Positions 5,835 to 47,047 of a stretch of 64,000 nucleotides of DNA are shown piece by piece. The notes beneath the pieces were generated by a model. That model searched no databases, had not been told where the DNA came from, and worked only from the letters and a program-made list of their open reading frames with translations. Each line of letters starts with the position of its first letter. Position 1 is the first letter of the stretch. Where the stretch lies: the NCBI GenBank assembly GCA_964521715.1, contig CAZFSS010000002.1, positions 151,828 through 215,827 of the forward strand, read 5' to 3'. Both the position numbers and the translations under genes were made by a program. This DNA comes from an uncultured candidatus Brocadiaceae bacterium. GTDB taxonomy: Bacteria; Planctomycetota; Brocadiia; SM23-32.

Positions 5835-5959
5835 GCCCTCCTTGCATTCCGGCGCTTCGCTCGCCCTCGGGCCGACGTGATGGGTTCTGCTGGAGGCTCC
5901 AAGAAAAGGAGCCACTTCCCACTGGGGGCGGTGGCTCCTGAGTCTGCGGGCTGTCAGCG

Positions 5960-6295: not shown

Positions 6296-6593
6296 CGCCG
6301 TTTCTCCTCCAAAGAGCTGTAATCCCCGCCTGCAAAGCCACAATCTCCTGCCGGGTCACGTCTGTCCGCCGTCGCCGATCACCTCCTTCCCCGGACCCCA
6401 GCAAAGCCGGCAAACTGTCCTTTTACACCGGGGGCACGCGAATGTCAAGCAGGTGACAGCGCACGCCCGGTTGCCCCGGGCGCGCTCCAACCGGCGCTTG
6501 CCGGCCCCTTTGAAAACGCGCCCCGCCTTGGGCTAGAATGTAAGCGCTGGGTTCTGGGATGCGCACATTTCTGCCAAGCTCGCAGGTATCCAG

Positions 6594-7199
6594 ATGGCAA
6601 CCGAACCGATTCCGGCCGGGCAAGAGGAGTACGAGGAAGAGGAGGAGCGGCCGCGCAAACACCTCTCGGAGCGGCTGCTGGAGTCGCGCATCATCCTGCT
6701 GAACGAGACCATAACCTCCGAGCTGACCGAGGACGTGACGGCCAGGCTCCTGATCCTGGAGGCCGAGGACGGCAAGGCGCCGATAGACGTCTACATCAAC
6801 TCGCCGGGCGGCGGGGTGGACGCGGGGTTCGCCATCTACGATATGGTTCGCTTCATCTCCGCCCCGGTGCGGTGCATATGCACGGGCCTGACCGCCAGCG
6901 CCGCCGTCCTCGTGCTGCTGGCGGCCCCAAAGAAGGCCCGACTGAGCCTGCCCAACGCGCGGTTCCTCATCCACCAACCCTCCGGAGGCGTGGGAGGAAC
7001 CACCGCGGACGTCCAGATCGAAGCCACCCAGATACTGAAGATACGGCAGCGCATAAACGCCCTGATAGCCGAAGAAACGGGCCAGCCCATTGAGAAGGTC
7101 GAAGAGGACACCCGCCGCAACTACTGGATGGACGCCGAGGAGGCCGTCGAGTACGGGCTGATCACTAAGATCGTCACTGCCAAAAAGGACCTCAAGTAA
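6594..7199 (+). CDS. clpP: ATP-dependent Clp protease proteolytic subunit
   Basis: The motifs IYINSPGG, TGLTASAAVLVLLAAP and FLIHQPSGG place the Ser-His-Asp residues in ClpP context. 201 aa. Confidence 0.9.
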   Translation: MATEPIPAGQEEYEEEEERPRKHLSERLLESRIILLNETITSELTEDVTARLLILEAEDGKAPIDVYINSPGGGVDAGFAIYDMVRFISAPVRCICTGLTASAAVLVLLAAPKKARLSLPNARFLIHQPSGGVGGTTADVQIEATQILKIRQRINALIAEETGQPIEKVEEDTRRNYWMDAEEAVEYGLITKIVTAKKDLK

Positions 7200-7302
7200 T
7201 CCGCGCCTGGCCGGGCGTGCGACGGCGCGACTGGTCGACAGTCATGCGGTTACGGATGCTCCGGCGGGGCCCGCGGAGGGCGCGGTGCAAGGAGGCCGTG
7301 AC

Positions 7303-9390
7303 ATGAGGGCATGCCGAACCAACGCAATGATCTGGGTGCTCGCCGGGCTGCTGCTGTGGGGCGCGGCCGCCGGAGCACAGGAACAGGCTCCCGCCGAACA
7401 GCCGCCCCAGCCGCCGCAGGAGCGCCCGGCCAGTTACTCCGTGCGCGAGCTCTCCCACGAGACCTACCAACTGGGCTGCATTGACATGCAGAGCTGCGTC
7501 CAGATCCTGGGCCAGCTCGGCTACAACACGAGCGCGCCCTCAGGGCAGGTCCAAATGGCTCAGTTGCCGGCCGTCTTCCCCATGCCCTCTGGCAGCCCGC
7601 AGAGCATCGTCGTCGACCTCGGCGACGTGTCCAAGACGAAACTCACAGGCGAGACCCTGTCCGCCCCCGAGAACCGGCTGATGATCCTCTACCACAGCAG
7701 CCAGAGCGAAGAGGTGGCGCAGCTGAAGGACCTGCTCGAGGACACAATCGACGTCCCGGAGCGCATGGTGCTGATCGAGGGCATGGTCATCGAGCTGACC
7801 GAAGACAGCCTGAAGGAACTGGGAGTCGAACTGCGGGCCTACGGCGGCGAGCTGCAATGGGGCCAGTTCGCCTCCGAGGTGGGGGGTACAGGGGAGAGCC
7901 AGGCCGCCCTATACCTCTTCCACAACCGGACCGACCTGGCCGCGCCCGCCGACCTGAGGCACCGCGTTGAGGCGACCATCCGCGCCGTCGTCCAGGAGGG
8001 AGGCGCAGAGGTGCTCTCCAGCCCCTCCGTCCTCGTCCTGAACAACCAGAACGCCAACATCCAGGTGACCAGGCAGTTGCCAGTGTTCAATACAGTCCTC
8101 ACCCAGACCACCACAAATGTCAACATAATATGGGAAACCGTCGGCATCATCATGAACATCAAGCCCCGGGTGAGCACTGACGATTCGAACATCGCCATGC
8201 AGATCCTGGTCGAGGTCAGCGAGTCGCCCGAGTTCATCACCGTGCTGACGGGCGAGCGGGAACAAGCGCTCGCGCCCCTGATCGAGCGCCGGGTGGTGCA
8301 GACCGTCGCGCGCGTGCAGGACAACACGCCCTTCATCATAGGCGGCCTGATCCGCAACGAGAAGGCGAAGTCCACCGACAGGATCCCCTTCCTCTCCCGC
8401 ATCCCCCTGCTGGGGAACCTCTTCCAGAGCAAGAGCGACCGGCGCGAGAAGCGGGAGGTCATCATCGTACTCACGCCGCGCGTCATCAAGACGGCCAGCT
8501 CTCACCGCCCCGTCCTGCCGAAGGACACGGACCAGTTCGACTTCCTGGACAGCCGCCTGTTCCGCAACTCCTACCGCCTGAAGGCCGAGGACATCTTCGA
8601 CCTGGCCTTCCTCGAGGAGAACCAGACGATACTGGACGCCATGGCCCGCGTGCGCGGGTTCGTGGTCAGGCACCCCGAGTACGCCAAGCGCTCCCCCTTC
8701 CGGGAGATGGCCCAGGGCAGCATACCGGGCGAGGACGCCATTGTGATCCGCATGATCTACGAGGTCGCCAAGAAGCTCGAGCTGCACGAGCGAATCAAGA
8801 CGGAGCGGATGATCGTCTTCCAGGCGGACCCCGACAAACCCGCCGGCTTCAGCGTCAAGTTCCTCAAGCGACTGCTCGAACAGAGCAGCCCTGACGGGAC
8901 GATCGCCGGCTACTTCGACCGGCCGTATCCGAAGGAAGTGCTCTTCTTCCGCTACCAGCTGCCCATGGGCGACGGCATGAAGGAGGTGCTCTGCTCCCCG
9001 GTGGCGCATCTGGAGCGCAGGCTGGTCCAGAACCAGGACGAGGTGCAGGAAGTCCTGCAGGAGATCAACCGGCTCTACGACGATTACACCTACCATGAGT
9101 TCGCGTTCGTCCTGGACACGGACGCCGATCTGGTGCGGCTCAAGGCGGCCGTGGCGCTGCGCGAGGTGGCCAAGGTGAACAACTTCGAAGACCTGCTGGT
9201 GCTGCGCAGTTTCCGCGTGGGCCGCAGGATCGCAATGCCCCAGATGGAGGAGACCGAGAGGATCTTCCTGGTTGACCACGAAGTGGCCGAATACTTCTTC
9301 AAGAGCGACTACTACTACGCCGCCTTGAAAGCAACGCTGGAGCAGGGCTATAAGATCGTCGAGCAGGCCCTGGCGACGGAGGGACAATGA
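7303..9390 (+). CDS. Secretin-family outer membrane protein (GspD/PilQ-like) with ~300-aa C-terminal extension
   Basis: AAGGAGG RBS at 7288-7294 then ATG at 7303. Signal peptide present. The secretin core signature IPFLSRIPLLGNLFQSKSDRREKREVIIVLTPRVI matches the canonical C-terminal secretin motif. About 300 residues follow the secretin domain. Confidence 0.75.
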   Translation: MRACRTNAMIWVLAGLLLWGAAAGAQEQAPAEQPPQPPQERPASYSVRELSHETYQLGCIDMQSCVQILGQLGYNTSAPSGQVQMAQLPAVFPMPSGSPQSIVVDLGDVSKTKLTGETLSAPENRLMILYHSSQSEEVAQLKDLLEDTIDVPERMVLIEGMVIELTEDSLKELGVELRAYGGELQWGQFASEVGGTGESQAALYLFHNRTDLAAPADLRHRVEATIRAVVQEGGAEVLSSPSVLVLNNQNANIQVTRQLPVFNTVLTQTTTNVNIIWETVGIIMNIKPRVSTDDSNIAMQILVEVSESPEFITVLTGEREQALAPLIERRVVQTVARVQDNTPFIIGGLIRNEKAKSTDRIPFLSRIPLLGNLFQSKSDRREKREVIIVLTPRVIKTASSHRPVLPKDTDQFDFLDSRLFRNSYRLKAEDIFDLAFLEENQTILDAMARVRGFVVRHPEYAKRSPFREMAQGSIPGEDAIVIRMIYEVAKKLELHERIKTERMIVFQADPDKPAGFSVKFLKRLLEQSSPDGTIAGYFDRPYPKEVLFFRYQLPMGDGMKEVLCSPVAHLERRLVQNQDEVQEVLQEINRLYDDYTYHEFAFVLDTDADLVRLKAAVALREVAKVNNFEDLLVLRSFRVGRRIAMPQMEETERIFLVDHEVAEYFFKSDYYYAALKATLEQGYKIVEQALATEGQ

Positions 9391-9704
9391 TGCGGGGCAG
9401 TTGGCTCGCCCTGTTGGCCGCGGCGCCATGCGCGATCCTGGGGTGTTCGGCGCAGTCGGCGTCCCCGGGCACGCAGCCAGCTATCGCCGAGCTGGATGAC
9501 TCCTTAGCGCGCCGGTCCCCGCTGGCCGGACTGGAAGCCGGCACGCCGGCCGAGGAAGTGCGGAACCTGCTCGGAGAGCCGGCCCTCGTGGAGGAGAAGC
9601 AAGAGGACGGAAATGCGGAGGTCTGGTACTACGATGGCGGAGTCGTAGTGATGCAGAAAGGCAAGGTCGCCTTCAGCTACTCGACGGCTGCCTCGCAACC
9701 GTGA
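9387..9704 (+). CDS. Small lipoprotein (candidate pilotin-like partner of the secretin)
   Basis: Its ATG overlaps the secretin stop (ATGA coupling). Signal peptide with lipobox (AILGCS). 105 aa. Confidence 0.5.
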   Translation: MMRGSWLALLAAAPCAILGCSAQSASPGTQPAIAELDDSLARRSPLAGLEAGTPAEEVRNLLGEPALVEEKQEDGNAEVWYYDGGVVVMQKGKVAFSYSTAASQP

Positions 9705-33016: not shown

Positions 33017-34177
33017 ATGGACGGGCCGACCGGGGGCAGCGCCGTGGAGCGGGGTGGCGTGAGCGCCGGCGACTTCGCCACCGAGGTCCTTGCCGGCCTG
33101 GTCCTGGTGGGCCTGGCTGCAACGCGGCTCCACAACTTCCTGCTCTTCCACAGCCTCGCCGAGATCTTCAGCATCGTCGTCGCGTGCGGCACCTTCATGG
33201 TCGTGTGGAACGCACGCCGGTACGTCGTCAACAACTACGTGATGTTCATCGGCATCGCGCTGTTGTTCGTCGCCCTGGTGGACACGCTCCACATGCTGGC
33301 GTACAAGGGCATGGGGGTGTTCCAGACGCCGGGCAGCAACCTGACCGTCCAGCTCTGGATGGTGGCCCGCTTGCTGCAGGGCGTCTCGTTCCTGCTCGCG
33401 CCCATTTTCATCCGCCGCAGGCTCAGGGCCGTTCCCGTGCTCGTCTTCTACGTCCTGGCCACGTTCCTCCTGCTCGCGTCGGTCTTCTACTGGGACCTGT
33501 TCCCCGTGTGCTACACGGAGGGCGCCGGGCTTACGGCCTTCAAGAAGGCCAGCGAATACGCCGTATGCGCCGTCCTGATCGGCTCGATGTTCCTGCTGCT
33601 GAAGAACCGCCGCTCGTTCGACCGCCACGTGGTGAGCGTGCTGGTCCTGTCCCTGGGGTTCACCATAGCCTCCGAGCTCGCCTTCACGCTGTACGTGGAC
33701 GTCGACAGCCCCGTCAGCATGCTGGGCCACCTGCTGAAGATCGTGGCCTTCTACCTCATTTACAAGGCCGTCATCGAGGCCAGCCTCGTGCGGCCCCACC
33801 GGACCCTATACAGGGAGTTGAAGGAAAGCGAGGAGGCCCTGCGCGCCAGCGAGCTGCGCTTCCGCCGAATGGTCGACGAGAGCCCGGACGGCGTGGTCGT
33901 GGTCAGCCAGGGCGGAATCGTCCGCTACATGAACCCCGCTTCCCAGGCGCTCCTGGGCGCGAAGGCCGACGCGATGATCGGCAAGCCTTTCCAGCACTCA
34001 ATCAAGCCGGGCAAGACGACGCTGCTGAGCATCGCGCCCGTGGAAACGGGCACGGTCACCCTCAGGGCCCGCATGGTCGGGACGCAGTGGGTCGGCGAGC
34101 CGGCCTACCTGCTGACCCTGCACGACATAAGCGACCAGCACCCCGTCGACACGGAGCCGCAGGCCCGGCTGCCGTAG
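33017..34177 (+). CDS. Membrane sensor protein (MASE-like multi-TM N-terminus + PAS domain), no output domain
   Basis: A seven-TM-like N-terminal region is followed by a PAS fold (RFRRMVDESPDGVVVVSQGGIVRYMNPASQALLG). The protein stops straight after the PAS domain, at the island boundary. Confidence 0.6.
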   Translation: MDGPTGGSAVERGGVSAGDFATEVLAGLVLVGLAATRLHNFLLFHSLAEIFSIVVACGTFMVVWNARRYVVNNYVMFIGIALLFVALVDTLHMLAYKGMGVFQTPGSNLTVQLWMVARLLQGVSFLLAPIFIRRRLRAVPVLVFYVLATFLLLASVFYWDLFPVCYTEGAGLTAFKKASEYAVCAVLIGSMFLLLKNRRSFDRHVVSVLVLSLGFTIASELAFTLYVDVDSPVSMLGHLLKIVAFYLIYKAVIEASLVRPHRTLYRELKESEEALRASELRFRRMVDESPDGVVVVSQGGIVRYMNPASQALLGAKADAMIGKPFQHSIKPGKTTLLSIAPVETGTVTLRARMVGTQWVGEPAYLLTLHDISDQHPVDTEPQARLP

Positions 34178-34435
34178 GCGCGGCGCGGTTTCTGAGGGCA
34201 GATGTGGGCCGGGGCAGCGCAAGCGAGAGGATCAACCGAAAGACCAGAAGGCGGGGCAGTCGGACGGCCCGGGAGGCCGAGATCGACGAGCTGGCTGCTG
34301 ACCTCTGGGGCCTGTCGAAGGCGGAGCTGAAGGACATCCAGGATTCCTTGGCGGACCTAATGGAATGAGTGGTTGAGGCGTCGGCGGACATGTCGGGTCA
34401 AGTCACACATCACGGGTGGGTCGAAGGGGAATCCA

Positions 34436-36049
34436 ATGCCGGGTACTAGGCCGTTCGGTACGAAAGACATAGGCGGCGAGCTATTGCCGATCCTCACGCG
34501 GGGCATCTACCGTGACCCGCTGGACACGCTTAGGGAGTACGTCCAGAACTCCATAGATGCTGGCGCTCACCATATCCAGGTCGCGATCACCTCTGACCTC
34601 ATCTCGGTGCGCGACGACGGAGCGGGCATGACGCGACAGGTCGCCGAGCGCGCCATCCGCTTGGGCATGTCCGACAAGGACCCTACTCAGGACGTTGGTT
34701 TCAGGGGCATAGGTGTCTACAGCGCTTTTAACGTATGCCAGAAGCTGGAAATCTACACGCGCCCGCGAGCCGGAGAGCCTTCCAAGTTGGTGTTCGACTT
34801 TGCGAGAACCCGCGAGAAGCTTCAGGACGAAGAGCAGCGCAGGCTGAACGGCAAGCCCTCAGGGCTCGACTTGGTGGCCCTATTGGGCGACTCGGTGTGG
34901 GTCGAGGAGTGCAGCGAGTGCCCAATAGCAGCAAGCGGCACAGTGGTGTTACTGGTAGGCATCCGGGGTGACGTGTACGGCCGACTGACAGACCGAGGGG
35001 CGGTCCGTCAGTATCTGGAGTCAGTTGTACCGCTACCGTTCCCGCCGGCGTTTGCCTATAAGCATCAGATAGAGGCCAGGTTCCGACAGGATGATTACCG
35101 GGTGGTGGACATGGAACTCACCATAGACGGACGGAACGAGGCCATTTGCAGGCCGTACCGGGACTCCATGTTCACACACGGCAAAGGGATTGGGCCGAAG
35201 TTCTACCCTCTGAGCCATGTTCTGGCTCGCGGCAAGCTGGGGTTCGCCTGGGTCTGCCTTAACGACGCACGTAGGTACCTGCCCGACCGGGCATTGCGCG
35301 GCCTTCTGGTCAAGAAGTTCGGCTTCTCTGTTGGTGACAGGGATTACTTCGCCCGCTACTTCTCGCGCCAGGTCTTCAACAACCGTGTGACGGGCGAGAT
35401 CATCGTTACCCGTGACGAGCTCGTTCCGAACGCTGCAAGGTCTGAGTTCGAACCTAGCCCCATCCGAGATGCTCTTTACCTCGCCTTCTCCAACCTGGCG
35501 GCCAAGGTTTCGAGGTGGGCCAACCAGGTTCAAGAGGAACTGAAAGCCAGAGAAGAGCTTCAGGAGATCTCTCCTGAGGTCTTCAGAATCGCCGAAGAAG
35601 TTCCTCTGTCGGAACGGGACGTACCTAAGCTATTGTCTCTGAATAACGTACTCTCCTCCTACGAGAGCAGGCTCAGGACTCACCACGCGAAACTGAAGAA
35701 GATGAACCCAGGGCTGCTCAGGCGGACGCTGACGGCGCTTGCTCAGACCCAGGACACCATCGCCGAGGTGCTAAGCGCTCAACAGCTCGGAGGTGAGGCG
35801 CGCAAAGGGCGGGTAAGACGGGCCGGGAGGCTGCTGGTTACCGCACCATCCGAAGAGGAGCTCGCCCACGCGCGGGAGAAACCCCATACCCTGGTCGACA
35901 TCGTTGGCTATCTCGGCATGGACCTCAGCGCTGACGCCACCCTTCTTCTTGAGTACATCGACAGGGAAGTCCTGCAGCGGAAGCTCTCGCCTGTAGAGTA
36001 CGCCGAGTGCATGGCGGATCTCCTTGCGTTCCTGGAGGAGAGCCTGTGA
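34436..36049 (+). CDS. GHKL-superfamily ATPase (Hsp90/MORC-like, HATPase_c_3) with ~400-aa C-terminal region
   Basis: Bergerat-fold motifs are present: N-box LREYVQNSIDAGA, G1 box ISVRDDGAGM, G2 box VGFRGIGVYSAF (compare Hsp90 IGQFGVGFYSAF). An RBS-like GAAGGGGA precedes the ATG at 34436. The stop is 2 nt before the next gene. Confidence 0.7.
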   Translation: MPGTRPFGTKDIGGELLPILTRGIYRDPLDTLREYVQNSIDAGAHHIQVAITSDLISVRDDGAGMTRQVAERAIRLGMSDKDPTQDVGFRGIGVYSAFNVCQKLEIYTRPRAGEPSKLVFDFARTREKLQDEEQRRLNGKPSGLDLVALLGDSVWVEECSECPIAASGTVVLLVGIRGDVYGRLTDRGAVRQYLESVVPLPFPPAFAYKHQIEARFRQDDYRVVDMELTIDGRNEAICRPYRDSMFTHGKGIGPKFYPLSHVLARGKLGFAWVCLNDARRYLPDRALRGLLVKKFGFSVGDRDYFARYFSRQVFNNRVTGEIIVTRDELVPNAARSEFEPSPIRDALYLAFSNLAAKVSRWANQVQEELKAREELQEISPEVFRIAEEVPLSERDVPKLLSLNNVLSSYESRLRTHHAKLKKMNPGLLRRTLTALAQTQDTIAEVLSAQQLGGEARKGRVRRAGRLLVTAPSEEELAHAREKPHTLVDIVGYLGMDLSADATLLLEYIDREVLQRKLSPVEYAECMADLLAFLEESL

Positions 36050-36050
36050 C

Positions 36051-37010
36051 ATGGCGGCGATGTTCGCGGACCATCCACGAAAGAAGGTAGTGCGCGAGGA
36101 CTGGGATACTCCCGTCCTCAACTTCCTGCACGACAGGTGGAACCACGGATACTTCTACTTTGGGCTGCCGGGGCCACAAGCCTTGGACATCAGGCTGTGG
36201 CGCGAGATGATCCGCCGGGTGGTCGCGTTCGAAATCGAGGAAGCGCACTCCAGAGATCCGAGGAGATCGATTGTCGAGCTCAACAGGCAGTTGGCGCTAC
36301 TTGGGGTGCCGTACTCAGTGTACTGCGGTCCTTTGGAGGAAGTCGTGTTGGGCGGCGTAGACTATGATGGTAGGCAGCTCGAGATCAAGGAGTTTGTTAC
36401 GCTGTTCAACCTGGACTTCTGCAATTCCATCACCGGAGCAGTGCGAACGGCTCATGGCAAGAGATACCTGCGTTTCGAGGCCCTCCGAGAGATCGTGAGC
36501 TTCCAACGACGACTCTACCGTGCTGCAGGGGTCTCCCGGTTTGTGATGCTGGTCACGGTACAGGATGCTTTCCACGTCCGACAGCTTAGGAGCTTCGTGT
36601 CAAACCCCGACCTGCCATCGGAGACAGCCGACTACTTAAGTGAGGTCCTAAGGGACAGAGGTCTACCGGACAAGGCCTTCGCATGCGATACCGCTCTACT
36701 GAAGGCCTTCGTCTTCACGTGTCTCAGAGAGTACCTGAGAGGGCAAAACGCCACTTCAGTCTTTCTGCCGCCCGTCGTCTACTATGGTGCTGCCGGACAT
36801 ACTCAGATGATGCACTTCGTCGTCGTGTGCGCCATGGAGAGGGAGGATACCGCCCTGGTTGAGGATCCCCAGGGGGCGGCGGATTTCCTTGGCATGCAGG
36901 TGTTGCGGGCCGACGAGCGGGATATCAAACCAGAGGCGGCTTGCGGCCCAGTGCGCGCTGTGGTCACTGATAGCGTCTCAGTTGTCAGGAACTACCTCTT
37001 CGATGAGTAG
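36051..37010 (+). CDS. Hypothetical protein, possible divergent Rossmann-fold (methyltransferase-like) protein; middle gene of the island operon
   Basis: 320 aa. A beta1-loop-helix-beta2 pattern (YFYFGLPGPQALDIRLWREMIRRVVAFEIEE) and a later LFNLDFCNS resemble SAM-MTase motifs I/II/IV, but weakly. The start is 2 nt after the upstream stop and the end overlaps the next gene by 8 nt. Confidence 0.55.
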   Translation: MAAMFADHPRKKVVREDWDTPVLNFLHDRWNHGYFYFGLPGPQALDIRLWREMIRRVVAFEIEEAHSRDPRRSIVELNRQLALLGVPYSVYCGPLEEVVLGGVDYDGRQLEIKEFVTLFNLDFCNSITGAVRTAHGKRYLRFEALREIVSFQRRLYRAAGVSRFVMLVTVQDAFHVRQLRSFVSNPDLPSETADYLSEVLRDRGLPDKAFACDTALLKAFVFTCLREYLRGQNATSVFLPPVVYYGAAGHTQMMHFVVVCAMEREDTALVEDPQGAADFLGMQVLRADERDIKPEAACGPVRAVVTDSVSVVRNYLFDE

Positions 37011-38535
37011 AACTGCGAAGCACGTCCAGGCAGTAAGGGGCTTCAGCCGCAGTCGACTCGGCGGGCAGCCTCGCCGTCGGACTGCGCTGCTCATCAACCC
37101 GCCCGTCTACGACACGCAATACTGGGCGCAGTGGAGCCAGCCGTACGGCTTGCTGAGAATCGCCGCACTGCTCAGGAAACACCGCTACAAGCGCATCGAG
37201 CTGTTCGACTTCATGGAAACCGATGGACAGCGAAAGGTCTACCAGCACCGGATCAACCGCGAAGAGGAGTACTCTGAGCGAGACCAGCCCTCCCGCCCTA
37301 CTCAGCCGGTGAAGATCGGCAAGAACGGTGAAGAGCTAAGCCTGTACAAGCAGCACTTCGGCAAGACGTGGGCGGAGTTCGACGAGTGGCTCGACGAGAA
37401 GGGCTTCACCGGCAAGCATCCGCCGCACGAAGTCTGGATCTCCGCCATCATGACTTACTGGTGGGAGAGCGTACGAGACCTGACCGTCCGGTTGCGGCGC
37501 CGGTTCGGCAAGCACACCACGATCCTACTCGGTGGTGTTTACCCAACGCTCTGCCCTCAGCACGCGGCCAGGATGACCGAGGCCGACATCGTGGTCGCAG
37601 GCGAGGTGAAGGAGGCGAACGACCTCTGGACGGACCTGTCCCTCTATGAGACCCCGCCTGACTATGCCATCATCACCCCGACGCGCGGCTGCCCCTACAA
37701 CTGCGGCTATTGCGCTCAGAAGGCCCTGAACCGCGGCCGTCGGAAGCCCTGCCGTCGCGACCCAGACGACCTGCTGGCGGAAATGAAGGACAAGCACGAC
37801 CGCTACGGCATCCGCGAGTTCGCGTTCTACGCCGACTACCTCCTCTTCGACTACGAGCACTGCTTGCTGCCACTGCTCCGGCGCATCGTTGAAGAGGGGT
37901 TGCCGTTCAAGCTGCACGCACCAGAGGGCCTGCACGTGCGCACGCTATGCCAGTCCCAGGAGCTCGTCGACCTGCTGAAGGCCTCTGGCTTCGAGAAGGT
38001 CTACCTGCCCTTCGAGCACATCGACCAAGACTACCTAGCTGCCCTGAACCGGGACCATGTGGGGATTGAACACTTCGTGAAGGCAGTGCGTATGATCGAG
38101 AAAGCGGGGTTCCGCATGCGCAACCTGGAGGTCAACGCCTTCGTTCTGTACGGCCTGCCCCAGGAGAAGATCGACGACGTGGTAAGGAGTGTGCTCTTTG
38201 TCTCAGAGGTGGTGGGCTCGATAATCCCCATGCTATTCACCCCCGTGCCGACGACTCAGGTCTACGAGGACTTTCTGCCATTCATCCGGGAGCGAGGATG
38301 GGATCGGGACCTGCACATGCTGAACGGCAAGCTCTATCCGTTCCTCGAGCTGAACGAAGGCTCCGTGAGCGACTACGTTGACCTCCAACGGCTGATGTAT
38401 ATGCTGAACGCGCACTACCGCAGCGCTTCCTTCCGTCCCTTTGGCAACACTCTAGTGGCCCAAAGCTTCCGAAACAACCTAGCGAACGGATTCAGTGAGC
38501 GCGTCGCTCGGATGGCGGCGGGTGCCGACACGTAA
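37003..38535 (+). CDS. B12-binding domain-containing radical SAM protein (class B radical SAM)
   Basis: The N-terminal LLINPPVYDTQY...LLRIAALLRKHRYKRIELFDF matches the cobalamin-binding domain of class B rSAMs. The canonical CX3CX2C cluster motif (TRGCPYNCGYCAQ) follows at about residue 240. 510 aa. ATG overlaps the end of the upstream gene (GATGAGTAG). Confidence 0.75.
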   Translation: MSRTAKHVQAVRGFSRSRLGGQPRRRTALLINPPVYDTQYWAQWSQPYGLLRIAALLRKHRYKRIELFDFMETDGQRKVYQHRINREEEYSERDQPSRPTQPVKIGKNGEELSLYKQHFGKTWAEFDEWLDEKGFTGKHPPHEVWISAIMTYWWESVRDLTVRLRRRFGKHTTILLGGVYPTLCPQHAARMTEADIVVAGEVKEANDLWTDLSLYETPPDYAIITPTRGCPYNCGYCAQKALNRGRRKPCRRDPDDLLAEMKDKHDRYGIREFAFYADYLLFDYEHCLLPLLRRIVEEGLPFKLHAPEGLHVRTLCQSQELVDLLKASGFEKVYLPFEHIDQDYLAALNRDHVGIEHFVKAVRMIEKAGFRMRNLEVNAFVLYGLPQEKIDDVVRSVLFVSEVVGSIIPMLFTPVPTTQVYEDFLPFIRERGWDRDLHMLNGKLYPFLELNEGSVSDYVDLQRLMYMLNAHYRSASFRPFGNTLVAQSFRNNLANGFSERVARMAAGADT

Positions 38536-38567
38536 CAGCAAAACCCGAACCTAGCCGGAGGGTCGCC

Positions 38568-39221
38568 ATGTTCGCAAGAGTCTGGTTGTCTGCCGTTCTG
38601 GCCCTTTTGCTCGTGCTCGGCGGCGCCGCGCCCGCGGCCCCTCAGCCGGGCCAGCCTCTGCCCCTGCTCGCCCCGCAGACCGAAGGCGGTAAGCCTCTGA
38701 TGCAGGCGCTCAAGGCGCGCCAGTCGTCGCGCTCCTACAGCAGCGAGCCGCTGCCGGCGCAGGTGCTGTCCAACCTTCTCTGGGCCGCCTGCGGCGTGAA
38801 CCGCCCCGAATCCGGAAAGCGCACCGCGCCCACCGCCGTCAACTGGCAGGAGATAGACGTCTACGTCGCCACGGCCGACGGGCTCTACCTGTTCGACGCG
38901 CACGCCCACGCGCTCAACCCAGTGCTGAGCGAGGACATCCGCGCGCTGACCGGCACCCAGCCCTTCGTAGCGCAGGCGCCTGTCAACCTGGTCTACGTGG
39001 CGGACTTCGCGCGCATGGGCCGGGCGTCCCAGGCGGACAGGGATTTCTACTCCGCCACGGACACGGGCTTCATCAGCCAGAACGTCTACCTTTACTGCGC
39101 TTCCGAGGGACTGGCAACCGTGGTCCGGGGCCTGGTTGACCGCCCCGCCCTGGCCAAGCGCATGGGCCTGCGGCCCGACCAGAAGATCATCCTCGCGCAA
39201 TCGGTCGGCTACCCGCAGTAG
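38568..39221 (+). CDS. Nitroreductase family protein with N-terminal signal peptide
   Basis: A signal peptide is followed by nitroreductase-fold motifs (KARQSSRSY...LSNLLWAACGVNRPESGKRTAPTA...). 217 aa. Confidence 0.65.
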   Translation: MFARVWLSAVLALLLVLGGAAPAAPQPGQPLPLLAPQTEGGKPLMQALKARQSSRSYSSEPLPAQVLSNLLWAACGVNRPESGKRTAPTAVNWQEIDVYVATADGLYLFDAHAHALNPVLSEDIRALTGTQPFVAQAPVNLVYVADFARMGRASQADRDFYSATDTGFISQNVYLYCASEGLATVVRGLVDRPALAKRMGLRPDQKIILAQSVGYPQ

Positions 39222-40395: not shown

Positions 40396-40677
40396 GTGGA
40401 CACCAAGCTGAGAGAGCGCATTGGGCGTGCCGCTCTGGTCCTGAAAGCTGCGGGGGCGAGCGAGGTGTACGTCTTCGGCTCGGCTGCGTCGGGCGAACTG
40501 CGCGAAAGCTCCGACATCGACCTTGCCGTGTCGGGTCTGCCTCCCGAGAAGTTCTTTGTGGCGATGGCCCAGGCGGGGGACGCTCTGGGCCGTGGGCTCG
40601 ATCTCGTCGACCTGGACGAGGAGTGCCCTTTCACCCGCTACCTGAAGGAAGAGGGAGAGCTGCAGCGCGTGGAGTAG
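40396..40677 (+). CDS. Nucleotidyltransferase domain protein (minimal NTase, MNT-type antitoxin-like)
   Basis: The GSAASGELRESSDIDLAV motif is the GS...DxD NTase signature. AGGAGG RBS then GTG at 40396. The track ORF starts earlier, at 40330. Confidence 0.7.
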   Translation: MDTKLRERIGRAALVLKAAGASEVYVFGSAASGELRESSDIDLAVSGLPPEKFFVAMAQAGDALGRGLDLVDLDEECPFTRYLKEEGELQRVE

Positions 40678-40720: not shown

Positions 40721-41131
40721 TTGCTCGACGTCCATCGTCCCGTGCTGCAGAAGTGCGCCGCTGCTGAACCGGACCCCATCGAGCTCTCCGCGCTCGGCGC
40801 GATGTTGCATGCGTTCTACACTGGCGTCGAGAACATCCTGAAGCGTATCACGGTCGAGCTGGGCGAAGACCTGCCGCGCGGCGAGGCATGGCACCGGCAA
40901 CTGCTGAACGCCATGGCGCGTGCTGGGCGTAGCCGTCCGGCTCTCATTTCCGAATCGCTGCGGGACGCGTTACGTCCCTACCTCGAGTTCCGCCACGTGT
41001 TCCGGCAGGCGTACACATTCCAGCTCAAATGGCCGCGGATGGCCAGGCTCGTCGTCGAGTCCGAGGCCATCTTCAAGCAGTTCGAGAAGGAGCTCGACGC
41101 TTTCCTGGAGGCCGACAAAGGGGCGGGGTAG
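40721..41131 (+). CDS. HEPN-domain protein (HI0074 / NTase substrate-binding-like; toxin-like partner of the MNT)
   Basis: 136-aa helical protein with an R-x6-H HEPN-like motif (RPYLEFRH) and the usual adjacency to a minimal nucleotidyltransferase. Confidence 0.6.
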   Translation: MLDVHRPVLQKCAAAEPDPIELSALGAMLHAFYTGVENILKRITVELGEDLPRGEAWHRQLLNAMARAGRSRPALISESLRDALRPYLEFRHVFRQAYTFQLKWPRMARLVVESEAIFKQFEKELDAFLEADKGAG

Positions 41132-41234: not shown

Positions 41235-44009
41235 ATGCAGCACCAGGAGCAGCATCCGCAAATGGCACGCATCCAGAAGCCGAAGCGGGAAGGCACGGGC
41301 GGCGCCGCCGTCGCCCTTGCAGCGATCGTTCTGGTCGCCGCGTTTCAGGCGGCTTCACCGGCAGAAGGGACGGACATGAAGAACCTGGTTTCCAACGGTG
41401 ACTTCTCGGAGATCTGGCTCGGCAGCCCCGCAGGATGGGAAACTTCGGGAAACGAGCAGAACGTGGACCAGCGCCTGGAGGCCGTCCTGGAAGGCGGCAA
41501 CCGTTACGCGAAGCTAACCTGCACGCGCTGCGAGGGAAGCGGCGGCTCGGACCACGCGATGATCGCGCAGATTGGCGGCGCCGCGCTCGAAGAGGGCAAG
41601 TCCTATGAGTTCTCCTGCCGGGCGCGCGCCGAGGGCCTCAAAGGGCGGACCGTCAACGTGGCCATGCGCGACACGGACGGCTGGCACGAGTGCGGGCTGA
41701 GCGCCGACCTCGTCCTGCGCGCCTCCTGGAAGGAGTTCCGCAACGTGTTCCAGGCAACGCGCTCGGTGGGGCCGACGGGGCGGCTCCAGTTCTGGTACAC
41801 CGAGCCGGGCACGTTCTACCTGGACGACGTCAGCATCGTCGAGGTCGCCGTCGGCGATGTCGAGTTCACCGACGTCGTCCCGCCAACAGGCGGCAAGAAC
41901 CTGGTGCCGAACGGCTCCTTCGAGGTCGGGGCGGGCGGATGGTCATCGTTCGGCAATCCGGCTGGCTGGGGCAATATGTGCCGCTTGCACGGGACGATCG
42001 AGCCGTCAGGCGGCGCCGACGGCCGGGCGTTCCTGCGCGTGCCGATGGGCGAAGGCCGGGCGCCCACCTTCTACTTCGACTACTTCGCGCCCGTTGCCAG
42101 GCGGCCAACGATGGCGCTGGCCGCGAACCTGGGATGGATCCCCGTCGAGGCCGGCCAGCCCTACACGCTCTCCTGCGACATGCGGGCCGACGTCGACGGC
42201 GTCGCGGCCACCATCGGCGCGTTCGCCAAGGCGCCGGAGGGCCGTTCGTGGGAGAACTCGCACCACCACGCGCAGAAGGTCAGGCTCTCGACCTCATGGC
42301 AGCGCTGCTCCCTCACGTTCCGCCCCGCCTACCGCTACGTCTTCGTCACCGTCGGGCCGGACCTGGATGAGGATGCGCGCGTGGACGTGGACATCGACGC
42401 CGTCCAACTGGAGAGGGGCGAGCGGGCGACGCCCTTCGAGCCGCGCAGCCCGGTGGAGGTGGCCGTCGAGCCCTCCGCGCCCGGTGGCATCTTCGCGGTC
42501 GGCGAGCCGGCCGCGCTCCACCTGCGGGCGTGCAATCACAGCGACGGCGCTGAGGCCGTGCGCTTCTCCTTCCAGGTCGCCGACTTCTTCGGCCGGCCCG
42601 TCGCGCTGCCGGGGGCCGCGCTGGAGGTCGCCCCGCGCGGGATCGCGGAGGGGCAGGTGCAGCTCCCCGGGGACTGGCGGGGCTACTACCGTGTCCGCGC
42701 CAGCTACGACTCCGGGAGCGGCAGCAGCTCCCAGGACGTGCGCCTCGCCTTCGTCCCGCCGCAGACGCGTGACGATTCGGTCATCGGCATCAATCACGCG
42801 TTCAACGACGCCTACCTGATCCAGCTCGCGCGCAAGGCCGGCATCACGTGGTACCGCGACTGGTCGCTCAAATGGCAGCACCTGGAGCCCGAGCCCGGCC
42901 GGCTCGACTGGCAGGTCGGCGACGTGCAGATAGACCGGGTGCTCAGAGAGGGCGTGCACCTGATGGCGCTGCTGCCGCCGTTCCCGTCCGCGAACTGGTC
43001 ATCGACCGCCGACCCGGACATGCAGGCGTCCTCGTGGGAGGCCGGCCGCCAGGCGTGGGCGCCGAAGGAGCCGCAGAAGCTCGCCGAGTTCGTCGGAAAG
43101 GCCGTCTCGCGTTACAAGAACCGAGTCAAGGTCTGGGAGTTCCTGAACGAGCCGATCTTCACCTCTTACGCCCTGCCGCGCGCGGGCGGCTACGAGCCGG
43201 CCGACTACGTCCGGCTGCTGGCCCCGGTTTCGGCGGCAATGCGGCAGGCCGATCCCGACTGCAAAGTCATGGGCGGCATCGCCGGCGGGACGGGCACCTA
43301 CACGCGCGAGGTCATCGGCGCCGGGTGCCTGGACTACGTGGACATCTTCAACCTGCACATCTACCCCGGGGCCGCCGCGCCCGAATCGTTCCTGGACGGC
43401 ATGGACGCGCTTCTGGCCCTGATGGACGAGCACGGCGGGCGCAAGCCGATCTGGATGACCGAGTTCTCCTACTACGCCGAGGACGACCTGCCGCGCCGGC
43501 CCTTCATCCCGGCCCCGGACTCCTGGTCGGAATCGCGCCTGCTGGCCGACGAGCGCGAATGCGCCGAGATGACGATCCGGTTCTGCGTCATCATGATGTC
43601 GCGCGGGGTGGAGAAGGTCTTCATCCACTCCGGCTCGAGCGGCACTGTGAACATGCCGAACACGGAATGCTGCGTCTTCAAGTACGGCGGCGCGCCGGCG
43701 AAGGTGCTTCCGGCCATCGCAGTGTTCACGGACTTGATGGGACCGTCGCCGAAGTGCGTCGGCCAGGCGCGGCTCGGCGAGGACGCGTACATCTTCGGGT
43801 TCGAGACGGGGGAGCGCAGTGTGCTGGTGTGCTGGAGCGCGTTCGACGAGGCGGAGGTCGCGCTGCCCGAGGGCGCGCGGTGCCTCGACTTCATGGGCAA
43901 CGAGCTGCCGGCGCGCCGCGTCCCCCTCACCCCGACGCCCATCTACCTGATCGGCCCGCCCGGCGCGGGCGAACAGCTCGGCCGGTCACTGGGCAAGGTT
44001 GGCTCTTGA
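41235..44009 (+). CDS. Secreted glycoside hydrolase (clan GH-A) with two N-terminal carbohydrate-binding-module-like domains
   Basis: RBS AGAAAGGA then ATG at 41235, with a signal peptide. Two CBM4/9-like beta-sandwich segments (NLVSNGDFSE...; NLVPNGSFEVGAGGW...) are present. The catalytic core carries acid/base VWEFLNEP and nucleophile PIWMTEFS. Confidence 0.7.
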   Translation: MQHQEQHPQMARIQKPKREGTGGAAVALAAIVLVAAFQAASPAEGTDMKNLVSNGDFSEIWLGSPAGWETSGNEQNVDQRLEAVLEGGNRYAKLTCTRCEGSGGSDHAMIAQIGGAALEEGKSYEFSCRARAEGLKGRTVNVAMRDTDGWHECGLSADLVLRASWKEFRNVFQATRSVGPTGRLQFWYTEPGTFYLDDVSIVEVAVGDVEFTDVVPPTGGKNLVPNGSFEVGAGGWSSFGNPAGWGNMCRLHGTIEPSGGADGRAFLRVPMGEGRAPTFYFDYFAPVARRPTMALAANLGWIPVEAGQPYTLSCDMRADVDGVAATIGAFAKAPEGRSWENSHHHAQKVRLSTSWQRCSLTFRPAYRYVFVTVGPDLDEDARVDVDIDAVQLERGERATPFEPRSPVEVAVEPSAPGGIFAVGEPAALHLRACNHSDGAEAVRFSFQVADFFGRPVALPGAALEVAPRGIAEGQVQLPGDWRGYYRVRASYDSGSGSSSQDVRLAFVPPQTRDDSVIGINHAFNDAYLIQLARKAGITWYRDWSLKWQHLEPEPGRLDWQVGDVQIDRVLREGVHLMALLPPFPSANWSSTADPDMQASSWEAGRQAWAPKEPQKLAEFVGKAVSRYKNRVKVWEFLNEPIFTSYALPRAGGYEPADYVRLLAPVSAAMRQADPDCKVMGGIAGGTGTYTREVIGAGCLDYVDIFNLHIYPGAAAPESFLDGMDALLALMDEHGGRKPIWMTEFSYYAEDDLPRRPFIPAPDSWSESRLLADERECAEMTIRFCVIMMSRGVEKVFIHSGSSGTVNMPNTECCVFKYGGAPAKVLPAIAVFTDLMGPSPKCVGQARLGEDAYIFGFETGERSVLVCWSAFDEAEVALPEGARCLDFMGNELPARRVPLTPTPIYLIGPPGAGEQLGRSLGKVGS

Positions 44010-44040
44010 CCACGCTGAAGCGATCCAGCTAAAAGCCCTT

Positions 44041-44964
44041 TCACTTCTCGCCCCCCCGGTCCGTCTCGACATGTCCATCATCACCATCCTGACGGCGCGC
44101 CCGCCGCACCGCCTCAATGAGCAGGTTGATGAGATCTTCGCGAGCCCGCATATAGCCTGACTGGCCAACGGCGGCCTCCTTCAGCATGTCGCTGGCGCTG
44201 GGTCTCTCGCGCTTGCGTTCGGCAAGATAAAGGAGGACAACCAGATAGATCACATAAGCCGTCAGAAGCATACAGACAATGCCCCATACAGCTGGGTTCC
44301 GCACGGGGCTCGACCCCCTGCTGACGCAACCTGCCAGATCGCCCAATGAGCACTGCTTCGGACTGGGGCCCTCATCTTGGCTGACAACGATGTTATCAGT
44401 TACTGTGGGAGCGACTAAAGGCACTTGCTGGCCAAGCTCAAATCGAAAGATCGCCAGAAGGAAAGCTCCGGGCGCTAGGCGCTGACCTTCGTCGCGTGCT
44501 CTCACTATCAGGAAGCTAGGACGAGTTGCGTTGCCTCCGTTCCAAGCTTCCAGCTTGCGACGGCAATCGCCGTCGAGTTCACCCCACACGCCAGGATATA
44601 CCTGGACGAACGTCCTTGTTGCGCCGCTTGGAAGCGGAACTGTGGCGCTGACTTTGCGCGCAGTTCCGCTTCCTACGTTGACGACCAATAGCGACAACTG
44701 AACCGAGGCCACAGCCGTGCTATCGGCCTCAACCACGGAGTTCCACGTCGCACACCACCGGACATCAGGGCCTGCGAGTAAGCGTGCCACAGCAGGCCAG
44801 ACGAAGGGAATCACAATCAAGATGACAGCGGCGAGCCCGCGGAGGATGTGCTTTAAGCTGCGCGTGATCCAGGCCCCTAGCCAGCAGTTGACCCCTCCGG
44901 TCCAGCCGGATCCGAGACCGCAGGATACTCCCCCTCCCGCACCGCAGGCGCGAACGCACTCCAA
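44041..44964 (-). CDS. Hypothetical 2-TM membrane protein in a low-GC cassette
   Basis: N-terminal TM (LAAVILIVIPFVWPAV) and C-terminal TM (VWGIVCMLLTAYVIYLVVLLYL). Lower GC than the surroundings. The 5' end overlaps the upstream ORF by 88 nt, so the true start is uncertain. Confidence 0.35.
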   Translation of the reverse strand: MECVRACGAGGGVSCGLGSGWTGGVNCWLGAWITRSLKHILRGLAAVILIVIPFVWPAVARLLAGPDVRWCATWNSVVEADSTAVASVQLSLLVVNVGSGTARKVSATVPLPSGATRTFVQVYPGVWGELDGDCRRKLEAWNGGNATRPSFLIVRARDEGQRLAPGAFLLAIFRFELGQQVPLVAPTVTDNIVVSQDEGPSPKQCSLGDLAGCVSRGSSPVRNPAVWGIVCMLLTAYVIYLVVLLYLAERKRERPSASDMLKEAAVGQSGYMRAREDLINLLIEAVRRARRQDGDDGHVETDRGGEK

Positions 44965-45515
44965 AGCTGGTCGAAAAGCTGCAACAGCCGACCAGCCGTC
45001 TTAGGGTCGTTGAAGCACGCCTCTGCTTGGACGGTCAAGTCGGCCTCGTTGGTTGCCCCTGCAAACTTGTACGGATGTGGATCCTCCAGGCGATAGCCGC
45101 GGTCATCGACCACTGTGAAGTGTGGCACGCGATCGCCATACTCACGGCTTCCACTGAAACGCAGGGCAAACCTGTCCGGGAAGTCCTGGCTCAGTGCTGC
45201 GACGCTTTTGCAGAGCTGTGCGGTGCCACCGGCTGGGCGTTCGTCCCAGACCAGGATGCGGGTATAGAGGTCTCTGGCCCTGTTTCGAAGAAGTGGGGCG
45301 AGCTCATCGAAAACGACATGGGGAAGCTCACCCGTCAAGAGGCAGACGGTAGAGCCAGCGCTCTCGATCAACTCCTTCAACACGAAGATGGCCGAGGTGA
45401 TAGTGCGGTTTGGTATACGTGCGGCGCCTCTCGTCTTTCTCTGCAGGCGCACCATCCCCCGGTACTCGACGGAAAGGTCGTCTTCTCGGTATTTGAATGG
45501 CTTCTCGTCACCCAT
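44877..45515 (-). CDS. Hypothetical protein (low-GC cassette, upstream partner of the 2-TM protein)
   Basis: 212 aa with no family recognised. Lower-GC codon usage. Confidence 0.4.
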   Translation of the reverse strand: MGDEKPFKYREDDLSVEYRGMVRLQRKTRGAARIPNRTITSAIFVLKELIESAGSTVCLLTGELPHVVFDELAPLLRNRARDLYTRILVWDERPAGGTAQLCKSVAALSQDFPDRFALRFSGSREYGDRVPHFTVVDDRGYRLEDPHPYKFAGATNEADLTVQAEACFNDPKTAGRLLQLFDQLWSAFAPAVREGEYPAVSDPAGPEGSTAG

Positions 45516-46150
45516 GGCCGGTGCCTCAACCAGAATCGACTATCAGGCTAACCAGAGGATACACTCTCGAAGAACTTCAGGAGGGCGATCGTACGGACTT
45601 GGCTGGTTTGCTACCCCTGAACAGGGGAATAGGCGCAAATCAAGGGAAACTCAGAAAAAGCAAGGCGAAAATGAGCCGCCAGCCTCGTCCTCCGGCGCCG
45701 TCGCAGGCGCCTTACGGCGGCGGCGACTCATACGGTTCTGGGACTTGCCCCCGCGGAGGCCGAGGTCGGCCCCTGCTGCCGGACCCGAACAACTCACTCA
45801 ACCGCGCCAACGTGTCCATGGTACCCATGGCCTGCTCCCATCGGTAGAGTAGGGACTGCATTCACAATGTCTCTGCTCACAGTGGCCCCCCATCCGGCTG
45901 GGCCCTCCCCGCTTCTTCACCATGTCGCCACACTGTAGCACCACGGAAACGGCATGTCAAGGCCAATTCCGACGTTTTCGCGATTTTCCAGACCTCCGAG
46001 AACGTGGTTCCACAGCCCACGACACATGCACAGGAAGGACCTCCTTCTAGGTCATCGGATAGGGCTCGTTGCGCAAAACGGGGATATGTCGAGTGGCAGT
46101 TTCTGGGTAGGTTTCGTAAAATCCACTCTATCAAAGTCGCGACACCCTTG

Positions 46151-47047
46151 TCAAGTAGCCAGATCTGGTTCTTGAACTGCCTGTGGGCCAATGCCGAAGC
46201 CCAGCATCCGGAATTGGGACGCCAGGCGGTCCCGGGCCCTCGCCAGGGGATCACCGCGAGGGATCAGGGGCTTGCCCGCGCCGAAGTCCGAGTTGCAGTC
46301 GGCAAAGGCGGCGTGGCCGCGGGCGTTGTCCCCGCGCGCGCTGACGTGCTGCAACCCGTCCTTCCACCGGTACACGTAGCTGATGTCCTCGTCGGCCGGG
46401 TTCCAGGTGTAGAGCTTGCCCGCGCGCCGGAACGCCTCGAGCAGCGCCTTCGCCTGACCGCTCACCCTCGGCGGATAGCCGCCGAGCCTCAGCGCCTCCT
46501 GCCGCTCGAAGACCATCTGGCCCTCGAAGACGTTGTGGCACGGGCCGCGCACCTCAAATCTCTCCCTCGGGCCAACGGCCCACCAGGCCGCGCGCGCCTT
46601 CGCGCAGCGCGGCAATGCACAGTGATCAGTGCAGAGTGATAAAGGAACGGATTCAACGGCTACGTCAAGGGGCCAGGGGCGGCCCGTTAGGGCCGAGACG
46701 CACATGGTGAGGTGCCAGGGCAGGTACAGATCGTCGTCGTCCCAATGCGCCACGAGCGGTGTCCCGGCAGCTTCGAGAAGGGCCTGCCGTTTGTGGCCGA
46801 GCGTCGGGAACCGCACCGGATGGTTGACCACGTGGACGCAGTCGGGCGCGCTCCCGAGGGCGATGGGCACCGGCGCGTCGTTGAGGACGAGGAGATGCTT
46901 CTCGCCGGGGTAGTCCTGCAGGAGGAAGCAGGCGACGGCGTCGCGCAGGCGCTCAAACCGACCGTACGTCGGACACAAGGCCGTCACGGACGGCCAGTGG
47001 CCAGTGCTGAGTGGCGAGTGATGAGTGGAGGGCAACAGATCAGGCAT
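46151..47047 (-). CDS. Glycosyltransferase family 2 protein
   Basis: VTALCPTYGRFERL...LLVLNDAP is the GT2 N-terminal signature. Its start overlaps the stop of the upstream GT2 gene by 8 nt. Confidence 0.65.
   Translation of the reverse strand: MPDLLPSTHHSPLSTGHWPSVTALCPTYGRFERLRDAVACFLLQDYPGEKHLLVLNDAPVPIALGSAPDCVHVVNHPVRFPTLGHKRQALLEAAGTPLVAHWDDDDLYLPWHLTMCVSALTGRPWPLDVAVESVPLSLCTDHCALPRCAKARAAWWAVGPRERFEVRGPCHNVFEGQMVFERQEALRLGGYPPRVSGQAKALLEAFRRAGKLYTWNPADEDISYVYRWKDGLQHVSARGDNARGHAAFADCNSDFGAGKPLIPRGDPLARARDRLASQFRMLGFGIGPQAVQEPDLAT

Follow-up and report, generated by a model that had tools for sequence, protein, structure and literature searches.

A radical SAM protein at the core of a mobile, modular gene system with DNA ATPases, a nuclease and adenine DNA methyltransferases

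What is the role of a radical S-adenosylmethionine (SAM) protein that has no biosynthetic genes around it? The question arises from a 64,000-nucleotide stretch of DNA (the window) from an uncultured candidatus Brocadiaceae bacterium (GenBank assembly GCA_964521715.1, contig CAZFSS010000002.1, positions 151,828 to 215,827). Positions 37003-38535 of the window, on the forward strand, are an intact open reading frame (ORF) of 510 amino acids, which we will call rSAM; its start codon (ATG at 37003) is in the same position as in its homologs. A prediction from the sequence of the window (the original prediction) described rSAM as an isolated, cobalamin-dependent class B enzyme. We found instead that rSAM is the constant member and conserved core of a gene system that is both mobile and modular and that otherwise consists of DNA ATPases, a nuclease, and adenine DNA methyltransferases. 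The synteny of this system is conserved, its partner modules have been exchanged, and the copy in the window has been truncated. We propose, with a probability of roughly 0.45, that rSAM is a subunit of a defense system and acts on DNA.

We collected about 110 related loci and mapped the neighbors of rSAM with tblastn. rSAM is the constant gene across these loci. After clustering the rSAM proteins at 97% and requiring more than 3 kb of upstream sequence, we had 48 non-redundant loci, and 45 of them carry one or both of two partner sets directly upstream of rSAM and on the same strand. The first set is a NurA-like protein of 377 amino acids, a HerA protein of 557 amino acids, and a methyltransferase of about 1090 amino acids (28 of 48 loci). 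The second set is a GHKL ATPase and a protein that we will call mid (8 loci); another 7 loci have GHKL only. Both partner sets are upstream of rSAM in 2 loci, and neither is in 3. The two sets belong to one larger system.

The rSAM proteins form a tight clade (57-80% identical) with a scattered distribution in Chloroflexota, Acidobacteriota, Bacillota, Hakubella, Ktedonobacter, and metagenome bins without classification. Its loci are rare, with 22 among 185,579 species-representative genomes, and they recur in anaerobic and sediment metagenomes; the wider family has 262 representatives at E < 1e-30. One full locus, with NurA, HerA, the methyltransferase, a DUF3800 protein, and rSAM, is carried by Neomoorella glycerini, a named species whose genome is complete (CP046244, at ~1,628,746-1,637,524; locus L001). 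In that locus, a staphylococcal-nuclease-like (SNase) gene, at 172-696, lies directly upstream of these five genes.

In the first set, the 557-amino-acid protein is HerA (chain B of PDB entry 7f6d, E = 5e-53), and the 377-amino-acid protein is similar to NurA (chain H of 7f6d, E = 0.04). These chains come from the HerA-NurA end-resection machine of Deinococcus radiodurans, which the pair resembles, as it does HerA-based defense; unlike that machine, the pair has both a type IIG methyltransferase and rSAM as partners. It belongs to the sister architecture and is absent from the window itself. The methyltransferase matches the PADLOC model REase_MTase_IIG over its full length (1269 bits) and has the NPPW motif of N6-adenine methyltransferases.

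The slot between the methyltransferase and rSAM varies: it is empty or holds DUF3800, DUF4268, SocA/Panacea, an unassigned gene (c60), a GHKL gene, or a GHKL-DUF4145 fusion. DUF3800, DUF4268, SocA/Panacea, and the GHKL-DUF4145 fusion are typical of defense islands, and one locus (L029) has an integrase beside it. Other arrangements are NurA-HerA-rSAM without the methyltransferase (L094/L095), NurA-rSAM (L009), and a permuted rSAM-NurA-HerA-methyltransferase (L102), and two loci (L013 and L025) carry an additional, different HerA/FtsK-like ATPase. We considered a 647-amino-acid GHKL protein as a possible fusion of GHKL and mid, but it has no similarity to mid and its C-terminus is DUF4145-like. 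Two loci contain a partial second copy of rSAM (residues ~302-497), about 1.4 kb downstream of the full gene (L024, 2492-3078; L111, 6035-6621). Scans against NCBIfam, Pfam, and PADLOC placed neither rSAM nor mid, the NurA-like protein, c60, or d249 in a curated family.

Within the NurA-HerA-methyltransferase loci, the median pairwise identities are 64.6% for rSAM, 63.8% for NurA, 67.8% for HerA, and 56.2% for the methyltransferase, and the four genes have diverged in step. The corresponding values for the GHKL loci are 64% for rSAM, 28% for GHKL, and 32% for mid. Also, GHKL-linked copies are found in several separate places on the rSAM tree. The tree and the low identities of GHKL and mid indicate that GHKL(-mid) modules docked repeatedly upstream of rSAM.

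In the window, rSAM is the last gene of a tightly packed, head-to-tail operon in the order GHKL, mid, rSAM. These three genes coincide with an islet of low guanine-plus-cytosine (GC) content in the composition profiles (34400-38550; 57-62% GC vs. 66-72% in the flanks), and this islet was horizontally acquired. The GHKL ATPase (34436-36049, forward strand, 537 amino acids) is MORC/MutL-like and contains HATPase_c_3 (PF13589, E = 1e-13, 51.6 bits vs. a cut-off of 25). In the alignment of its homologs, the N, G1, G2, and G3 boxes of the Bergerat fold are intact: the invariant residues are E35..N39..D42, D61xG63xG65, G89..G92xG94, and G169-T170, in the motifs ExxQNxxDA, DxGxGM, GFxGIGxYS, and GT. 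This fold, with all of its motifs, is shared with the prokaryotic MORC/paraMORC GHKLs of restriction-modification contexts, MzaB (from MZA), and the GHKL-type restriction enzymes BbrUII/HgiDII. GHKL has weak matches in NCBIfam and PADLOC to MzaB, TmtA, and BbrUII/HgiDII, far below their cut-offs (26-39 bits vs. 550-850), and the partners in MORC-, MZA-, or BbrUII-type systems differ from a methyltransferase-fold protein and rSAM.

The mid gene (36051-37010, forward strand, 319 amino acids) starts 1 nucleotide past the stop codon of GHKL, and its own stop overlaps the start of rSAM by 8 nucleotides; the operon is predicted to be translationally coupled. The mid protein is PP_RS20740-like, with weak matches to PF28273/NF047698. 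In the literature that we searched, PP_RS20740 appears only as a hypothetical protein of a furfural-tolerance study. No Pfam-A family, including the methyltransferase families, matches mid above threshold, and a sequence search of the PDB returned nothing. However, its AlphaFold model has a predicted local distance difference test (pLDDT) score of 93, and all of the 50 top PDB matches of the model are class I methyltransferases (E ~1e-5, template modeling [TM] scores of 0.3-0.5). The model thus gives mid the seven-stranded class I Rossmann fold of SAM-dependent methyltransferases. Its invariant motifs include YxGLPG...D and NLDFC, at the canonical positions of motifs I and IV, as well as AF(E/Q/D). 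The two neighbors that the original prediction described, a GHKL ATPase and a protein of no assigned family, are thus both in place, and the second now has an assigned fold.

Between GHKL and the gene upstream of it lies the remnant of a type IIG N6-adenine methyltransferase, which we found with tblastn. It comprises the last ~30 codons, which encode REAEIDELAADLWGLSKAELKDIQDSLADLME, and the stop codon (34273-34368, forward strand), and it ends 67 bp before the start of GHKL. The remnant is 69-82% identical to the C-termini of the methyltransferases of more than 15 loci. Its best match is from L028 (82% amino acid identity; 79% nucleotide identity over 86 bp), whose rSAM is also the closest to that of the window (80% identity) and its sister on the rSAM tree. 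The gene upstream (33017-34177, forward strand) encodes a MASE3-PAS membrane sensor of 386 amino acids, with no kinase or other output domain, and ends 60-95 bp before the remnant. The sensor looks as if the junction that truncated the locus had cut it as well. Together, the remnant and the missing output domain point to one junction, at about 34180-34270, where a single deletion or insertion took away NurA, HerA, and the larger part of the methyltransferase. By these comparisons, the window holds a composite, truncated at its 5' end, of a locus with the NurA-like protein, HerA, the type IIG methyltransferase, the variable slot, and rSAM. An intact methyltransferase-GHKL-rSAM composite is found in L103, and L100 has a remnant similar to that of the window. 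We considered the MASE3 sensor as a part of the element, as there is also one near L001, and rejected this: the two are only 35% identical and lie on opposite sides of rSAM in opposite orientations.

More distant relatives extend the pattern. Homologs of mid at ~30% identity remain in GHKL-mid-rSAM operons (L113, L114, L115, and L116). The rSAM proteins of these operons have 374-667 amino acids and are 22-27% identical to that of the window, with the common motifs TYWW, GG(V/I)Y..L, and RGCxxxCxxC. In L114 and L116, the order is NurA-HerA-GHKL-GHKL-mid-rSAM, and NurA and HerA are from the same families as in the closer loci (hidden Markov model E = 1e-43 and 1e-150). This six-gene operon, at 898-10000 of L114 (a metagenome-assembled genome from Pyrinomonadaceae) and 1003-10044 of L116, ends in an rSAM of 650 amino acids and appears to be the system at its most complete. 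In an Ignavibacteriales metagenome-assembled genome (MBN1639241.1; L118, 194-7075), an rSAM with 46% identity is followed by a DndB-like gene, an unassigned gene of 320 amino acids, a Dam-like methyltransferase (MethyltransfD12), and a second DndB-like gene. By its gene content, this locus adds a third type of DNA-modification context to the rSAM family.

What kind of radical SAM protein is this? Its membership in the superfamily is clear from the CxxxCxxC motif, the Radical_SAM domain of Pfam (PF04055, E = 7e-18, 65.7 bits vs. a cut-off of 29.5, residues 224-395), and fold matches to many structures of radical SAM enzymes. The two elements that the original prediction had pointed to are both present in the intact protein: LLINPP is at residues 29-34 (nucleotides 37087-37104), and the [4Fe-4S]/SAM motif CPYNCGYC is at 37690-37713 on the forward strand (C230/C234/C237). 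We aligned homologs that are 57-80% identical and come from many phyla. These three cysteines are the sole invariant ones (16 homologs; a second alignment agrees), which suggests a single Fe-S cluster and argues against an auxiliary cluster. The rSAM of the window retains all of the family-invariant residues. In the AlphaFold model (pLDDT 78, predicted TM score 0.81), an N-terminal Rossmann-like domain of B12 type (residues ~25-210), which is interrupted by an insert at residues 72-140, is followed by the radical SAM TIM-barrel core and a helical C-terminal region.

The class-B-like architecture of the original prediction holds up; the dependence on cobalamin is less certain. The B12-binding domain (PF02310, residues 139-205) has E = 4.6e-6 but scores 26.9 bits, which is below the cut-off of 32.1, and the fold of AprD4, which lacks cobalamin, is equally close. 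Among the PDB fold matches of the model, QCMT/MgmA (9ccb; E = 2e-12, TM 0.51-0.61), TsrM (6wtf; E = 4e-11, TM 0.45-0.50), and OxsB (E = 9e-8, TM 0.34-0.47) bind cobalamin, while AprD4 (6fd2; E = 4e-12, TM 0.57-0.64) and MtaB/MiaB (E = 8e-11 to 2e-8, TM 0.40-0.53) do not. The Rossmann-like domain of the predicted model superposes on those of QCMT, TsrM, and OxsB, but AprD4 and MiaB/MtaB fit equally well. AprD4 and ArsL fall within the similarity network of B12-type radical SAM enzymes, yet they do not bind cobalamin, and B12-type domains do not prove cobalamin binding (2026 review, PMC12931638). At the gathering thresholds of Rfam, the 64-kb window (~68% GC) has no RNA genes, that is, neither a tRNA nor a riboswitch, so the lack of a cobalamin riboswitch in the original prediction stands. 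For the use of cobalamin by rSAM, we consider the odds to be about even.

The class B enzymes remain useful comparisons. QCMT/MgmA (9ccb), TsrM (6wtf), TokK (7kdx), and OxsB (5ul4) have the same domain order as rSAM, with a Rossmann-like domain ahead of a TIM barrel with CxxxCxxC. These enzymes are its best fold matches and weak profile matches, and they share the N-terminal pattern LLINPP...GLLRIAALL...D. Unlike them, rSAM is only 11-17% identical, has a PF02310 score below gathering, and has a 70-residue insert in the Rossmann domain. Also, the context of rSAM is restriction-modification-like, while theirs is antibiotics, cofactors, or the maturation of methyl-coenzyme M reductase. AprD4 matches the fold as well as QCMT does, and ArsL is a weak match in NCBIfam; they serve small-molecule pathways (aminoglycosides and arsinothricin) and have no context in common with rSAM.

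rSAM does not fall within a characterized tailoring clade, a result that would have refuted the original prediction: its scores against curated families are 15-47 bits vs. cut-offs of 250-775. The best is Sden_1168 (47 bits vs. 575); lower scores are those of BchE (40.5 vs. 481), PhpK (28.3 vs. 600), HpnR (18.8 vs. 650), and KedN5 (15.8 vs. 700), and other matches below threshold are to ladderane, HpnJ, AprD4, and ArsL. Across the characterized class B clades (TsrM, Fom3, GenK, HpnP/HpnR, BchE, PhpK, KedN5, ladderane, and BzaD), rSAM is below every NCBIfam cut-off, and the matches fall mostly in the core and its flanks (residues ~200-423). A sequence search of the PDB found nothing better than E = 0.008. 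We rejected a methylthiotransferase (MiaB/RimO/MtaB), as no cysteine beyond CxxxCxxC is invariant and TIGR00089 scores 17 bits vs. 251. We also rejected a prokaryotic viperin: neither PADLOC nor NCBIfam has a viperin match, and fungal viperin (6b4c) reaches a TM of only 0.26.

We now return to the role of rSAM. The conserved GHKL ATPases, NurA and HerA, N6-adenine methyltransferases, and DndB-like proteins point to DNA as the site of action, which favors the idea in the original prediction that the substrate is a macromolecule. Its remark that biosynthetic genes are lacking near rSAM extends to every locus. Judging from these genes, the system is probably an anti-invader defense that resembles restriction-modification; that rSAM itself acts on DNA has slightly less than an even chance.

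In the mechanism that we propose, the single [4Fe-4S]/SAM site of rSAM, possibly with cobalamin in the Rossmann-like domain, would carry out radical chemistry on DNA. It would add a second modification on or next to the adenine that a partner has methylated, and the resulting self mark would be difficult to imitate. The ATPases (GHKL, or HerA with NurA) would scan, clamp, and degrade unmarked DNA. A second-step modification seems the most economical because rSAM has no specificity domain, works with unrelated methyltransferases, and co-occurs with nucleases that need a self mark. There is a precedent from tRNA: Trm5 makes 1-methylguanosine (m1G), and the radical SAM enzyme TYW1 then works on that N-methyl group. 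By this analogy, rSAM might perform a second radical step that is coupled to adenine methylation, an idea that we hold only tentatively. It is rather doubtful that rSAM installs a new DNA modification as the self mark, for instance by C-alkylating or extending the N6-methyl group of the partner-methylated adenine.

Alternatively, rSAM could be an effector that is activated by the ATPases or methyltransferases as sensors, and that makes a chain-terminating or toxic nucleotide analog (like viperin or OxsB) or drains SAM or nucleotides. The lack of a variable specificity domain and the unrelated partner sets would suit a small, universal substrate, and the window's three genes include no other candidate effector. 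The fold matches include OxsB, an enzyme that forms oxetanocin, an antiviral nucleoside, from deoxyadenosine mono- or triphosphate (dAMP/dATP). Radical SAM enzymes in anti-phage defense also have precedents in the prokaryotic viperins (pVips) and in OpnA of Ophion, a different system that was reported by a 2025 modularity screen (bioRxiv 10.1101/2025.09.30.679545). However, the viperins and OpnA, which make or are proposed to make nucleotide analogs, lack the Rossmann N-terminal domain, have no sequence or family match to rSAM, and match its fold in the core only, and the match to OxsB is weak (root-mean-square deviation of 15-17 Å). Also, the loci have no conserved nucleotide kinase, phosphatase, or HD partner, the NurA-HerA loci already contain nucleases, and modification better explains why the linkage is repeatedly to unrelated classes of DNA adenine methyltransferases. 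We consider an effector role unlikely.

Another possibility is that rSAM modifies a protein, and so matures or regulates a partner subunit, much as QCMT/MgmA and Mmp10 methylate methyl-coenzyme M reductase. The best fold match is indeed QCMT/MgmA, a glutamine C-methylase, but with 17% identity only the general fold is shared. The partners are unrelated and interchangeable, and some loci have one partner or none, so no common protein substrate is apparent. Neither a precursor-peptide gene nor a SPASM domain is present. This makes protein modification improbable.

We judge it just as improbable that the window's copy is a decaying leftover that stopped working after NurA, HerA, and the methyltransferase were lost. 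A leftover would be expected to show a deletion junction, and one is marked here by what remains of the methyltransferase and by the sensor that lacks an output domain. But the three ORFs are intact, the invariant residues of rSAM and the ATPase boxes of GHKL are all kept, and identical copies were found in three other sequencing runs. Furthermore, the same three genes stand alone in at least six unrelated loci (L004/L062, L033, L038, L013, L025, and L115), with 7-10 kb of flanking sequence free of NurA, HerA, and the methyltransferase. These observations suggest that the three genes in the window are probably still functional. Finally, it is very improbable that rSAM is an ordinary tailoring class B enzyme with coincidental neighbors, even though its general architecture is class-B-like and some sources annotate its relatives as "YgiQ/UPF0313" or "B12-binding radical SAM," as its neighbors are conserved across Chloroflexota, Acidobacteriota, Bacillota, Hakubella, and others (the synteny statistics contradict coincidence), its curated-family scores are far under the cut-offs, and no locus has biosynthetic genes.

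Several observations weigh against a DNA-directed defense role for rSAM. The defense role is guilt by association. Some loci lack any methyltransferase: these include loci with GHKL-rSAM only (L010, L017, and others), L094/L095, and two or three loci with rSAM alone (L002/L061 and L012). If rSAM acts on a partner's methyl mark, then at these loci the methylation must come from elsewhere in the genome. The ribose-binding acidic residue of motif II varies in mid (E/Q/D/K), which suggests that mid may not be an active methyltransferase. The three genes in the window include no recognizable nuclease, and L117 has GHKL and mid without rSAM. In phage and plasmid collections, tblastn found only remote matches to the core of rSAM and none to mid, and a search of IMG/VR with a profile of the close rSAM family found nothing. 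With a broader profile, IMG/VR has relatives of rSAM (23-31% identity) beside SPASM radical SAM enzymes. For instance, in L120-L126 (IMG/VR contigs, ~5500-9400), relatives at 23-25% identity (profile E ~1e-88) are preceded by a second radical SAM/SPASM-type enzyme and two small conserved ORFs, and L120's group lies near the R subunit of a type I restriction system. This group appears to belong to a different pathway. Function is thus not uniform across the superfamily, which implies nothing for the clade of the window.

Other features of the window lie downstream of rSAM. A gene of the nitroreductase family (38568-39221, forward strand) begins 33 bp past the stop of rSAM. It is probably unrelated, since it lies in host-like DNA (70% GC) and is not conserved beside rSAM in other loci. 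An MNT/HepT-type toxin-antitoxin pair, with a nucleotidyltransferase (Polbeta/NTP_transf_2, 40396-40677) and a HepT-like protein (40742-41131), both on the forward strand, lies 2 kb downstream of rSAM; these gene calls are from L030, a contig identical to the window. A second low-GC islet (44000-46300, 59-61% GC) may be another acquired element; the ORFs on its minus strand, at 44041-44964 and 44877-45515, carry no annotation.

How does the system compare with known defenses? Like BREX, DISARM, Dnd/Ssp, Dpd, and MADS, it is a mobile and modular system in which large ATPases and a nuclease accompany an enzyme that modifies DNA. The partner methyltransferase weakly matches PglX and MAD2, HerA weakly matches mad8, and the 46%-identical relative of rSAM has DndB-like neighbors. 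Unlike these systems, it has no PglZ, BrxC, DrmA/B, DndACDE, DpdA, or mad core genes. As far as we know, none of them has a B12-type radical SAM protein; the radical SAM enzyme that feeds the Dpd pathway, QueE, is unrelated. In PADLOC-DB v2, there is no model for mid or the NurA-like protein, and rSAM hits only PDC-M51A (E = 0.005); of all the components, only the type IIG methyltransferase matches fully, and GHKL matches weakly (TmtA/MzaB). The papers that we searched, among them surveys from recent years of HerA-based, Dnd, and BREX-related systems, do not connect a radical SAM protein with GHKL, NurA-HerA, or a type IIG methyltransferase. The system is apparently undescribed so far, while its general kind (modification-based, multi-gene defense) is already known. 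There is a real chance that it represents new DNA chemistry.

If the proposed role is correct, then radical SAM chemistry, possibly with cobalamin, would join the ways in which bacteria mark or attack DNA. These loci would be a new family of multi-gene defenses with interchangeable partner sets, either NurA-HerA with a type IIG methyltransferase or GHKL with a methyltransferase-fold protein, and a large unannotated branch of the "B12-binding radical SAM" superfamily would have a function. If rSAM modifies DNA at an adenine that is already methylated, then no B12-type radical SAM protein before it would have been known to act on DNA, and its product would be the first two-step epigenetic mark in bacteria that is based on N6-methyladenine (m6A). 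Even if the idea of DNA modification fails, the conserved synteny makes rSAM a strong candidate for a defense gene that the catalogs have missed.

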